Source of the DNA: Octopus sinensis
Lineage: Eukaryota
DNA: 64,000 nucleotides
Direction: 5' to 3'
Assembly: GCF_006345805.1 (NCBI RefSeq)
Contig: NC_043002.1
Coordinates: 10,540,001 to 10,604,000 of the forward strand
Part shown: positions 33,213-58,380 of the stretch, piece by piece
Numbering within the stretch: the first letter of the stretch is position 1
How the letters are laid out: each line of letters opens with the position of its first letter
Translations under genes and position numbers: made by a program
Notes under the pieces: generated by a model
What the model saw: only the letters and a program-made list of their open reading frames with translations
Database searches by the model: none
What the model was told of the DNA's origin: nothing

Positions 33213-33541
33213 GGGAGCACTCCGTCGGTTGCGACGCCGAGGGTCCCAGCTGATACGATCAACAGAACAGCTTGCTCGTGAAATTAACGTGCAAGTGGCT
33301 GAGCACTCCACAGATACGTGTACCCTTAACGTAGTTTTCGAGGAGATTCAGCGTGACACAGAGAGTGACAAGGCTGGCCCTTTGAAATACAGGTACTACT
33401 CATTTTTTCCAGCTGAGTGGACTGGAGCAACGTGAAAATAAAGTGTCTTGCTCAAGGACACAACGCGCCGCCAGGCTTTGAACTCACGGCCTTACGATCA
33501 CGAGCCGATTGCCCCTAACCACTAAGCCACGCGTCTTCACC
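33213..33541 (-). mobile_element. SINE head D + tail Y
   Basis: CORE-like GTGTCCTTGAGCAAGACACTT; TSD ATAGATATAT. Confidence 0.9.
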
Positions 33542-33717
33542 ATAGATATATATTTATGAGTAAAAGACATTAGTAAAAATTGTGCTCGTTGACACTCTCA
33601 AGCCTCTAAACGCTTCCCTGTGGTATGATTTTGCTCCCCACCCTTTTCACGATTTCAAAGGTGTGACTGTTCGGACCTTGTTAGGAAACATTATTCAACA
33701 GACTATTAATATGGAAA

Positions 33718-34039
33718 GACCCAGACCGGGCGTTGTGAGTGTTTATTGAGCGAAAACACCTAAAGCTCCACGCGGCTCCGGCAGGGGATGGTGGTGATCC
33801 CTGCTGTACTCTTTCACCACAACTTTCTCTCACTCTTACTTCCTGTTTCTGTTGTACCTGTATTTCAAAGGGCCGGCCTTGTCACTCTCTGTGTCACGCT
33901 GAATATCCCCGAGAACTACGTTAAGGGTACACGTATCTGTGGAGTGCTCAGCCACCTACACGTTAATGTCACGAGCAGGCTGTTCCGTTGATTCGGATCA
34001 ACCGGAACCCTCGTCGTCGTAACCGACGGAGTGCTTCCA
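33718..34039 (+). mobile_element. 5'-truncated SINE head C + tail Y
   Basis: TSD TAATATGGAAA. Confidence 0.9.
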
Positions 34040-34594
34040 TAATATGGAAAAAAACAACCACTCGTATATTAATCATTATTTATGGTGCCAGTGGAATCTA
34101 AATTAAAATGTGTTAACACATGTCAGGCAACCACTGTCTCTTTCTATCCACCTACTATTTTTTCTAAAATAACACGTAGGATTTAACTTCCAGGACTGGT
34201 AATAAAATATGCCAACTTCAGAGAACCTGGCAGATAAGAAAAATGAACATTTGACGAATCTGTCAAATGACTGCACAGTGGAATCAAATATTTGATGTAA
34301 CTGTATACTGAAAACTGAATAATATAATTTCACAGCTCCGCAATTTTTTCATAAACGGTTTTTTATAAAAGAAAAAAAACGGACGAAAGCGTACGGCAAT
34401 TTTACACTCAAATAATTTACGACCTAATAACTTCGAACACGAACTTACGATGTGTAGAAAATCTGTCACTGAAAAGAACTGCCGTCAAACAAATTTGAAA
34501 GAGAAGTTTGCTTCTAATTAACAAGCTATTTGCAAGACAGCTGCAAAAACTACTATCGCTCTGAGGTGTGGGCATGGCACATAGGCATAGATAT

Positions 34595-34827
34595 TATTTC
34601 TTTATTGCCCACAAGGAGCTAAACATAGAAGGAACAAACAAGGGCAGACAATGGGATTAAGTCGATTACATCGACCCCAGTGCGTAAATGGTACTTAATT
34701 TATCGACCCCGAAAGTGTGAAAGGCAAAGTTGACCTCGGCGGAATTTGAACGCAGAACGTAGCGGCAGACGAAATACTACTAAGTATTTCGCCCGGCGTG
34801 CTAACGTTTCTGCCAGCTCGCCGCCTT
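34595..34827 (-). mobile_element. SINE-A (tail2), full length
   Basis: Full consensus; TSD ACATAGGCATAGATAT. Confidence 0.92.
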
Positions 34828-34834
34828 ACATAGG

Positions 34835-35695
34835 CATAGATATGGCTGTGTGATGAAGAATCCAGCTTTGAAGCCATATGATTACGGGTTCAGTCCCACT
34901 ACGCGGTACTTTCGGCAAGTGTCTTCTACTATAGCCCCAGGCCAACCAGTGCTTTGAGAGGGAATTTGGTAGATTGACAACTGCTTGACAACTGGTGATG
35001 GTTTGTTTACGCCCTCGTTAACGATAGAATAAATATTAAACTTAAAAAATAAGTTCTGTTGTCGTTTTGTTCAACTAAAATTCTTCGGTGAGGTCTCCCA
35101 GCATGGCGACAGTCCGATGACCGAAACAAGTAAAGAGCAGAACACAAACGATGCAAAATAGATCTTATTTTCGAGCCGACCTGAAATAAATTTAATTTAG
35201 CGTTGGAGTGGCTGTGTGGTAAGTAGCTTGTTTACCGACCACATGGTTCCAGGTTCAGTCCCACTGCATGGCACCATGGGCAAGTGTCTTCTACTATAAC
35301 ATCGGGCCCACCGAAGACTTGTGAGTGGATTTGCTAGACAGAAACTGAAAGAAGCCCGTCATATATATGTATATGTATATATATATATATATATATTATA
35401 TATATATATATATATATATATATATATATGCATGTGTGTGTGTGTGTGTGTGTGTGTGTTTGTGTGTGTGTGTGTGTTTGTGTGTCTGTGTTTGTCCCCC
35501 AACATCGCTTGACAACAGATGCTGGTGATTTTACGTCTTCGTAACTTAGCGATTCGGCGAAAGAGCCCGATAGAATAAGCACTAGGCTTACAAAGAATAA
35601 TTCCTGGAGTCGATTTGCTCGACTGAAAGGCGGTGCTCCAGCATGGCAACAGTCAAAATGACTGAAACAAGTAAAAGAGTAAAGAGTAAAGAGAG
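34835..35695 (+). mobile_element. Two SINE-B copies (34835-35140 decayed; 35200-35695 full length)
   Basis: Head, internal microsatellite and tail as in 61586-62033. Confidence 0.88.
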
Positions 35696-55990: not shown

Positions 55991-56781
55991 TAAGACAAAA
56001 AGTAAATAGCAACACGACTTCTGTACACAACTACCATATTTATTATGAAATCAGTGGCGAAGAAACTTTGCGAAAAATTAATCAATATATATATTTTGAA
56101 AGATTTCATTGAAAATGGCAGCTAGTTTAATTTTCGATTGAATGCTTACATACATAAGTGGAAAAGAGAAAATATAAATAAAAACCAAGGCAAAAATTGA
56201 TTAAGTGACTAAATTAGGGTTTAATTTTCAACTATTTTTCTTTTATTTTTAATGTATTTATAGCAAATTCGAGTCAGTCTCAAGTAAATCTATTTATAGA
56301 TTTTGAACGGGTTGCGTAAATTTACTTCGTTTTATTAATTTTGTTTTGTTTGTTTACTGTTTGGTTTTTCGATTTTATCTTAATTTGATCTGTAAAGCAT
56401 ATTTTTTTTATCTTTATCTTTTTTTTAAACAAATATTTATGCTTCTTTATTTTTGCCGTTATTTTCAACACGGTGGAAGTTTTTCTTCCAAATTTTCAAA
56501 CCCGTAGCAGATGCTCACCTTGAGTTAAATTTTCTCATGTATGGATAGAATTCAGGCGATTAACACTCTTGCTTATTTAACCCCATAACAACGCTGATTA
56601 AGCAGACCTATGACTAAAGGTATTTCATCTGTTACTGTACCTTCGATTCTTGTAAGAATTTGGTTCCTATTTTCAGACAGGGTGATGCGTCCTGTCCTCC
56701 ATTTAAACGCTTCATTTTCACATTGCTCCAGTTTACTTACGTGGGAGTACTAATAATTTCCTCGACATGAGTAAAAGAATA

Positions 56782-56919
56782 TACGGGAGAACAAATCAAT
56801 TATTATTTTAATCAACATATTTCCCTCTCAAATTCATACACTTATTGCAGCGGTCCTTCAGAACTCCCTGTAAAAGAACTCGGAAGATTGAGCCTCCAAT
56901 CAGGCCTTTTGAGATACCA
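56782..56919 (-). mobile_element. Mariner transposase C-terminal remnant
   Basis: Reverse complement reads *LEAQSSEFFY, then after a frameshift KDRCNKCMNLRGKYVD*, typical of a mariner C-terminus. Confidence 0.6.
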
Positions 56920-56923
56920 TTAA

Positions 56924-57059
56924 CTCTTTGAGCCCGTAACACCGGTTTACCGGTGGATGGCTTAATTTTCTCTATACCGTAGCACCGCTCTACAGGTGGA
57001 GTGCATCAAGAAGCCAGTTATATGGTCAAATGAGGTTCAGGAGATCAAGGCTGAAAGGG
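56924..57059. mobile_element. piggyBac-like MITE
   Basis: TTAA|CTCTTTGAGCC ... GGCTGAAAGGG|TTAA. Confidence 0.65.
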
Positions 57060-58106
57060 TTAAAGCCAAGAGTTTTTCAGCTCCTTCTTGTAGCTATAAA
57101 GGAGTTCCCGCAAGAGCTGGATGGTTAACCCTACCACAGGCCGCAGTCCTGCTCAAAGTGGCCTCATCAGACCAAACTCCTAAGTACATTATATAATGTA
57201 TCATTTGTTTATTTCAGCCCCCTGAGCGTAATTTCAGAAAAATTTATCAACGTTTCAAGAGTTGCTCGTTCAGATTATGACATTTATGATCCAAGAGTTG
57301 TTGTTGCGTGGACGTTGTTGTATCTGCAAGTTAGTAATGACACTTTGTTTAATACTTTTTCTTCTTTAGATTGTTATCATTCAATTGTGATATCTTGGCG
57401 ATATTGTAGTGAAACGAATGGGCTTCCATTATTGTCCGTTATATGGCCTAAATACAATATCGCTAGAAACAATTGTGGATTCTGTTGTTGCTTTGTCTCA
57501 GGCCATCTCAGATGCAGCAGGCCTATGATAAAGAAGTGTTAAAGATAAAGAAGATGATAAAGAAGATGCAGAAGGCTTATGATAATTTGATCTGTGTAGC
57601 ATATTTTTTTATCTTTATCTTTTCTTTTTAAACAAATATTTATGTTTCTTTATTTTTGCCGTTATTTTCAACACGGTGGAAGTTTTTCTTGTCAATTTTC
57701 AACCAGTAGCAGATGCTCACCTTGAGTTAAAATTTCTTATGTATGTATAAAGTTGTTGCTGTGTGGACGTTGTTGTGTTTGGTAATTAGTTGTTGTATCT
57801 GCAAGTTAGTAATGGCACTTTGTTTAATAGTTGTTCTTCTTTAGATTGTTATCATTTAATTGTGATATCTTGGCGATATTGTATTGAAACGAAAATGTTT
57901 GCATTATTGTCCGTTATATGGCCGAAATACAATATCGCTAGAAAGGCCTATGATAAAGAAGTGTTCCAGGACCATGCATCCTGTAATTTTTATGGGTAGT
58001 GCATATTTCAGACTAAAATAATCGAACTTGTTCCTCTCTTTGAATACCAGAAATCATTAACTTTGAAAGATTTGGTTTTTCTTTCCAGCAGGCTAAGTGA
58101 CCAGTT

Positions 58107-58380
58107 TGTGGAGGCGCGTGGATTAATGTTTAGCGTGTCAGCATCATGATCGTAAGATTGTGGTTTCGATTCCTGGACTGGGCGACGCGTTGTGTTCTTG
58201 AGCAAAACACTTCATTTCACGTTGCTGCAGTTCACTCAGCTGGCAAAAATGAGTAACGCTGCGATGGACTGGAGTCCCGTCCAGCTGGCGAATACGTACA
58301 CCATAGAAAGCGGGAAACCGGGAAACCGGGCCCTAGATCCTAGCTAGGCTTTAAAAGTGTGCGTTTATTTATTATTTTTT
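58107..58380 (+). mobile_element. SINE head D + tail Z
   Basis: 13-bp TSD TAAGTGACCAGTT; tail CTGCGATGGACTGGAGTCCCGTCCAG..GGAAACCGGG. Confidence 0.88.

Follow-up and report, generated by a model that had tools for sequence, protein, structure and literature searches.

Tail exchange among related CORE-type SINEs in a 64-kb stretch of the Octopus sinensis genome

A stretch of 64,000 nucleotides from Octopus sinensis (NCBI RefSeq assembly GCF_006345805.1, contig NC_043002.1, positions 10,540,001 to 10,604,000 of the forward strand; hereafter the window, with positions counted from its first letter) contains a group of short interspersed elements (SINEs) in which two tRNA-like heads, designated C and D, are followed by different 3' tails, designated X, Y, Z and Z'. 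The central observation is that tail Y stands behind both heads. The tails of D-Y and C-Y are identical at 170 of 188 positions (90%), whereas their heads are only 63% alike. In addition, one subtype of head C carries either X or Y, and the CORE domain of head D is followed by either Y or Z' directly after AAAAATGAGTA. The elements probably belong to high-copy, tRNA-headed CORE-type SINE families, which RNA polymerase III (Pol III) would transcribe and the reverse transcriptase (RT) of a long interspersed element (LINE) would copy, new families arising by a template switch at the end of the CORE domain or in the pyrimidine linker of head C. The original prediction of module exchange, including the switch point of head D, is borne out. 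A clean grid of two heads by three tails with five of six combinations occupied could not be maintained: head C comprises two subtypes, heads C and D are homologous, and the tail of the D element at 58107 is a paralog of tail Z.

Chimeric elements and their heads

All eight elements named beforehand are present, those at 17633, 48687, 60240 and 33213 lying on the minus strand. They are given below together with their target-site duplications (TSDs), a tail-less head that had not been listed originally and a terminal piece of another tail X. C(xy) and C(z) denote the two subtypes of head C.

41086..41393, plus strand: SINE C(xy)-X; tRNA-like head, putative diverged CORE, predicted pseudoknot (stem 2 damaged), pyrimidine linker, tail X; TSD 41073-41085 / 41393-41405, 13/13 matching
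About 41274-41393, plus strand: tail X of this element, ending with a 9-bp tandem unit
42035..42424, plus strand: SINE C(xy)-Y, full length; tail Y starts at 42236; TSD 42024-42034 / 42425-42435, 10/11 matching
33719..34039, plus strand: SINE C(xy)-Y, truncated at the 5' end, with little of the tRNA part left; tail Y starts at 33851; TSD 33707-33717 / 34040-34050, 11/11 matching
33213..33541, minus strand: SINE D-Y; tRNA-like head, CORE ending with AAAAATGAGTA at 33397-33407, then tail Y; TSD 33203-33212 / 33542-33551, 10/10 matching
58107..58380, plus strand: SINE D-Z'; tRNA-like head, CORE end at 58255, tail Z' with terminal TTTA repeats; TSD 58094-58106 / 58381-58393, 13/13 matching
17633..17934, minus strand: SINE C(z)-Z; decayed TSD, 10/13
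48687..48970, minus strand: SINE C(z)-Z; 21-base deletion in the tRNA part; within a CA microsatellite, TSD unreadable
60240..60548, minus strand: SINE C(z)-Z; decayed TSD, 12/14
2484..2620, plus strand: tail-less C(xy) head, 3'-truncated
1..71, plus strand: second tail X, its 3' end only, truncated at position 1 of the window, 96% identical to 41323-41393; its head lies beyond the window

The elements are 274-390 bases long. TSDs of 10-13 bp had been proposed around the chimeras, and in five of the eight elements they are clean and flush with the element ends; among the C-Z copies they have decayed in two and cannot be read in the third. Of 2000 random flank pairs, in which matches were allowed anywhere within the flanks, 0.8-3.3% attained the scores of the clean TSDs (9-13). 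For the two decayed C-Z duplications the automatic scores were 6 and 8, values reached by 35% and 6% of the random pairs. Since the TSDs surround whole elements, the chimeras moved as units, as had been claimed; five of the eight clearly inserted in this way. Nested insertion at these loci is ruled out by the same whole-element TSDs.

A-box-like TGGCCCAGTGGTTAG and B-box-like GTTTCGATTCC motifs are recognisable in the heads. ARAGORN predicted no tRNA genes, and among the best 150 of 165 Rfam rows there is no tRNA family, the matches being sub-threshold and driven by microsatellites. Decayed SINE heads are usually missed by tRNA finders. Alignments of head C with head D gave 79 of 126 identical positions with a score of 50 and 88 of 131 with a score of 75, the respective shuffle maxima being 30 and 28. 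At 63-67% identity the two heads are homologous, D being of CORE type and C probably so; the alignment falls partly into the tRNA-like region. When the bodies alone were compared, the D copy at 58107 agreed with C at 37 of 55 positions, with a score of 33 against a shuffle maximum of 24, and only the 5' part could be aligned.

By its sequence, head D is a CORE-SINE head. A 21-base part of the primer for BivaCORE-SINE2 of scallops matches the window only at 33410-33430 in D-Y and at 58222-58242 in D-Z', with 1 and 2 mismatches and 0.01 matches expected, and the published BivaCORE-SINE2 consensus agrees by eye with the D core through AAATGAGTA, where D changes its tail. The cores of the two D elements are 89-90% alike, but the likeness drops to about 75% across 51 bases of the tRNA parts, so that the idea of a single head D was too simple. 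A decayed, old third D core (nhmmer E 0.0003-0.003) is located at 56684-56748 on the plus strand and has no recognisable tail. Head C shows no match to the BivaCORE-SINE2 primer and a weak nhmmer match (E 0.02); it is probably a diverged CORE-SINE head.

Head C, which likewise had been treated as one unit, falls into two subtypes with identities of 0.78-0.83 between and 0.90-0.95 within them. They differ at 17 diagnostic alignment columns, 7 of which lie in one stretch where the MAFFT register is perhaps shifted. Within the window, subtype C(z) is found on all three Z copies, and the copies with X or Y have subtype C(xy).

Tail exchange and the origin of the families

Once past the linker, mutual alignment of tails X, Y and Z remains at shuffle level, and no further tail matches were found within the window. 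The tail at 58107 had been assigned to type Z. It agrees with C-Z tails at only 67 of 99 and 67 of 100 positions, compared with 105 of 120 between two C-Z tails, and ends in TTTA repeats, whereas Z ends in AAAC repeats; it is designated Z' here. The likeness between Z and Z' (67-68%) equals that between the heads of C-Z and D-Z' (63-67%). Because head and tail are equally diverged, as common descent predicts, D-Z' and C-Z need no swap; probably they are sister families of old standing, both of which have retained a Z-type tail from their ancestor. As evidence for a swap, a combination of D with Z is ruled out, Z' being a paralog of Z with another terminal repeat. Regarding tail Y, both C-Y tails have 15 differences from the D-Y tail in common, with 3 and 8 in the other pairings, which fits one chimeric master per family.

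The junctions fall within short common sequence, namely TGAGTA and the pyrimidine linker. For head C, CTCTCACTCTT had been put forward as the exact switch point; this is ruled out, as the common pyrimidine linker extends past it by about 10-15 bases, with the tails departing from the linker at staggered positions.

Abundance of the modules was assessed with contigs from four public runs, which were aligned at 80% likeness to positions 41000-42500, a stretch comprising C-X, C-Y and a unique spacer, with D and Z lying outside it. Summed contig depth, a rough measure and not a copy number, is about 4-5x10^5 times that of the unique spacer for the C body, 4-7x10^4 times for X and 2-3x10^5 times for Y. 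Since contig depth lies so far above that of the spacer (4x10^4 to 5x10^5 times over all three), the C, X and Y modules are not singletons; singleton chimeras had been named beforehand as the result that would speak against the proposal. Variant sites among the aligned copies are mostly C>T and G>A (89 and 84 of 254 in run X1). An excess of these two changes is the usual mark of CpG decay in SINEs. Exact-pattern scans for the modules returned 0 loci in metagenome contigs, viral contigs and prokaryote genomes, and no RNA source was listed for the queried unique stretch.

The same contigs also contain joins between modules. In each run, 165-409 contigs have loose ends that pass from the C-X linker into tail Y. 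Moreover, 5 of 32 listed contig pieces, spread over all four runs, start at 42236-42239, the D-Y junction, and are preceded by 15-159 other letters; non-C sequence joined to Y at this point thus recurs in all four runs. Behind 42215, the consensus of the loose ends consists of the C linker followed by the 14 bases of 58251-58264, the start of the Z' tail of D. This consensus is exact in run X5 (171 contigs), one base off in runs X1 (223) and X8 (111), and different in run X3, with an agreement of 0.68-0.69 and a median loose length of 13-15. Judged from these contig ends, a C+Z' join, absent from the window, likely exists elsewhere. It may represent a fourth swap or another descendant of an ancestor with a Z-type tail, and head C may be derived from a D-like element by an internal replacement that kept the CORE end. 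A different join, found in all four runs with one contig per row, leads from the C body, immediately ahead of the linker, into the beginning of a further C head (41245/41246 to 42034/42035), which suggests that C heads form tandem dimers or arrays at some place in the genome.

In the proposed scenario, Pol III would transcribe each family from the tRNA-like head, and the RT of a partner LINE would copy the SINE RNA by target-primed reverse transcription. During this process the RT may jump between RNAs at the 3' end of the CORE (in D) or in the pyrimidine linker (in C), giving rise to a master with a new tail. Chimeric masters of this kind would be few, each new combination then spreading as a family of its own. 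A minimum of about three swaps would be needed, one between Y and Z' behind the D core, one bringing Y from one of the heads D and C(xy) to the other, and one placing X on C(xy). These three, visible as Y on both C and D, as X or Y on C and as Y or Z' on the D core, are well supported.

Several points weigh against this scenario. The sequences do not distinguish a template switch from recombination of a master copy at the DNA level, and none of the tails X, Y and Z could be matched to a LINE 3' end in the window. The body of the D copy at 33213, when taken alone, agrees with C at 21 of 30 positions with a score of 22, which is below the shuffle maximum of 27. Furthermore, the element copies examined in full or in part number 10, and D-Y, D-Z' and C-X are each represented by one full copy in the window. 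Neither an RT nor any other Pfam family above the cut-off was detected in 30 of the 118 stop-to-stop open reading frames of the window.

It is possible, if somewhat unlikely, that the change of tail left the LINE partner unchanged, one LINE type or relaxed recognition serving all families and the tails being mostly captured body segments. Such an arrangement would agree with the bivalve SINEs described in the accessible part of PMC11481361, where a clear LINE-derived region is missing from 16 of 21 tail clusters. It would also agree with the fold energies of the four tails, none of which is much better than those of shuffles (z from +1.15 to -1.83). The terminal repeats, which differ between the tails (9-bp unit, AAAC, TTTA), speak against a single partner. 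Differing terminal repeats often reflect different LINE partners.

Formation of the chimeric masters at the DNA level, by ectopic recombination, gene conversion or insertion of one SINE into another, followed by retrotransposition, is distinctly unlikely. The extreme abundance of the modules and the position of the junctions in short common sequence would both favour such events, as would the tandem copies of another SINE of the window, SINE-A, and non-allelic recombination is named as an alternative in the available text of PMC4758252. At the junctions of the copies examined, however, there is neither an internal TSD nor a leftover tail, and the sequence common to the C-Y and D-Y junctions amounts to only a few bases.

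Free recombination of two interchangeable heads with three tails at two fixed junctions, each tail having its own LINE and all six combinations including D+X existing, is very unlikely: although Y is truly common to both heads, each of the three tail types has its own terminal simple repeat and the loose ends of runs X5, X1 and X8 point to a further C+Z' join, Z and Z' are paralogs, the head subtype tracks the tail at the diagnostic columns, the C junctions are staggered, the C+Z' consensus is short, of limited agreement and different in run X3, and no loose end before tail X is found among the best 24 rows (with 3951 further rows), where the known D-Y join is likewise absent. The existence of D+X, which had been predicted, does not follow, since each combination looks like a separately amplified family.

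General ideas on SINE evolution are unchanged by exchange through few chimeric masters, and the history appears simpler than a two-by-three grid. The window offers a local example of SINE mosaic evolution and a start for the curation of octopus SINEs, which are mostly unclassified according to the accessible part of PMC13282606.

A predicted pseudoknot in head C and other repeats of the window

In the C body, immediately 5' of the linker in which the tails switch, an H-type pseudoknot is predicted at the following positions.

33779-33823, plus strand: 5'-truncated C-Y copy
42159-42203, plus strand: full-length C-Y copy
41210-41250, plus strand: C-X copy
17769-17813, minus strand: C-Z copy at 17633
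48827-48871, minus strand: C-Z copy at 48687
60381-60425, minus strand: C-Z copy at 60240

The two predicted stems, of 9 bp and 5-7 bp, can be formed in all six C copies. Five copies reach pseudoknot scores of 13-15.5, and the C-X copy, which has a 4-base deletion, reaches 12; these values were attained by 0 of 60 shuffles in the five copies and by 1 of 60 in C-X. Among 1500 random unmasked 62-mers, 2 reached a score of 13 and none a score of 15, and other parts of the SINEs remained at or below 12. Both stems show compensatory changes. In stem 1, two pairs that are A-U in all three C(z) copies have become G-C in both C-Y copies or vice versa; in stem 2, one pair reads C-G three times and U-A twice, a change that runs across both C subtypes.

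Other observations argue against the pseudoknot. RNAalifold and RNAfold, which are unable to form pseudoknots, favour a long hairpin in which stem 2 is retained and stem 1 lost, the input of RNAalifold being the MAFFT alignment with the first stem out of register. The stem 2 change is situated at CpG sites. In addition, the segment was picked after inspection, and the copies are related, so the changes perhaps represent few events. A conserved RNA structure of some sort in the C body is likely; a role of the predicted pseudoknot in tail capture is a guess. An HDV-like ribozyme was also considered and dropped on inspection, there being no room for a third stem between the two predicted stems.

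It is conceivable, although improbable, that the modelled pseudoknot together with the unpaired pyrimidine linker would form a built-in landing site for the jumping RT, by which C would repeatedly capture Y and Z' from D-type donors carrying the CORE end TGAGTA. If the pseudoknot did drive tail capture, few modules would account for a large share of the octopus SINE families without classification, roughly 900 in number, and the landing site would provide a structural cause for the old idea that conserved SINE bodies are recombination hotspots. Its importance would be raised because hypotheses for the persistence of conserved SINE bodies are called undemonstrated in the accessible part of PMC5804259 (2016). 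Among the literature matches listed, no SINE is described that combines a pseudoknot, template switching and a CORE domain.

More than one tail had also been claimed for SINE-A, which we take to be Nin/Deu-like, and three tail types can indeed be distinguished among 24 BLAST matches sorted by eye: eight copies have the first tail, about six the second and about five older copies the third. The tails part after the hairpin motif GTCGAT..AATCGAC, and head-to-tail arrays mix copies with different tails. The C-Z copy at 17633 has a peculiar neighbourhood, its 5' end at 17934 adjoining an element of roughly 1.3 kb, and may lie within a fold-back or MITE-like (miniature inverted-repeat transposable element) element. 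These and further repeats of the window are the following.

14541-15149, 16591-17126, 34588-34838, 35877-36126, 40369-40577, 44500-44745, 45346-45585, 59248-59913, 62233-62710 and others: SINE-A copies
17935-19195: element of roughly 1.3 kb with long internal inverted repeats (75%)
17512-17632 and 19183-19303: inverted pair (88%) on either side of the C-Z copy
2638-3057, 35205-35669, 42847-43230, 48179-48564 and 61564-61994: dispersed repeat with at least five copies, consisting of two arms (about 155 and 175 bases) with an AT/GT microsatellite between them
9232-9579: 350-base palindrome
37652-38417: inverted pair of 200-base arms (89%)
43231-43774: 86-base minisatellite, 6.3 copies

Comparison with known SINE systems

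Tail exchange behind a CORE domain is an already published kind of system. Module exchange among SINEs by template switching or recombination is described in the accessible parts of PMC4758252, PMC5804259, PMC5786205 and PMC11481361, and tail exchange at conserved domains is advanced as a hypothesis in PMC5804259. No published description of the junctions reported here was found in a search that left most subscription journals and Repbase outside, and six short motifs of the tails are absent from the supplements of two mollusc SINE studies.

A CORE-SINE of octopus has been known since 1994, and the passages available name it as OR1 in PMC4824008 and as OR2 in PMC4758252 and PMC5804259. OK, OR1 and OR2 (Ohshima and Okada 1994, PubMed 7932738) are tRNA-derived, and one of these three octopus families is the CORE-SINE. 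With at least five head-tail combinations in addition to SINE-A, the window holds more than three families; some of these are likely OK, OR1 or OR2. The OK, OR1 and OR2 families may have sequence blocks in common, as has reportedly been described.

Expansions of 'tRNA-Core' and 'tRNA-Deu' SINEs in octopus are reported in the accessible part of PMC8967140, and in that of PMC13282606 (2026) 893 of 900 recently active SINE families of the O. vulgaris repeat library are unclassified. In contrast to the map given here, the annotations in these parts come without a division into head, body and tail. The library of PMC13282606, deposited at Zenodo, may hold the present consensus sequences.

Other SINE superfamilies were compared by short motifs. 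In Ceph-SINEs the core is followed by an RTE 5'-derived segment; the 23-base Ceph-SINE motif taken from the available part of PMC5786205 has 0 matches in the window at up to 3 mismatches. At the same tolerance a single bivalve primer for the 66-bp Meta domain of MetaSINEs and a single bivalve primer for the V domain of V-SINEs each gave 0 matches, one primer being a weak test in either case; no likeness to the printed MetaSINE consensus was seen by eye.

Closer parallels are provided by the mosaic mollusc SINEs (PMC4758252; PMC11481361) and the WALLSI2-type recombinants (PMC5786205). As in the window, a single domain is combined with more than one tail and a single tail with more than one domain, which the accessible text of these papers explains by template switching or recombination. 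Those families are from bivalves, gastropods or marsupials, whereas the exchange described here took place between two octopus-type CORE heads. BivaCORE-SINE2 of scallops resembles the present elements in its tRNA-like head, CORE domain and variable 3' tails, and its likeness to the D core includes AAATGAGTA at the point of tail change. Head C differs from it in keeping only a putative, diverged 5' part of the CORE, which is followed by about 75 bases with the predicted pseudoknot and the pyrimidine linker.

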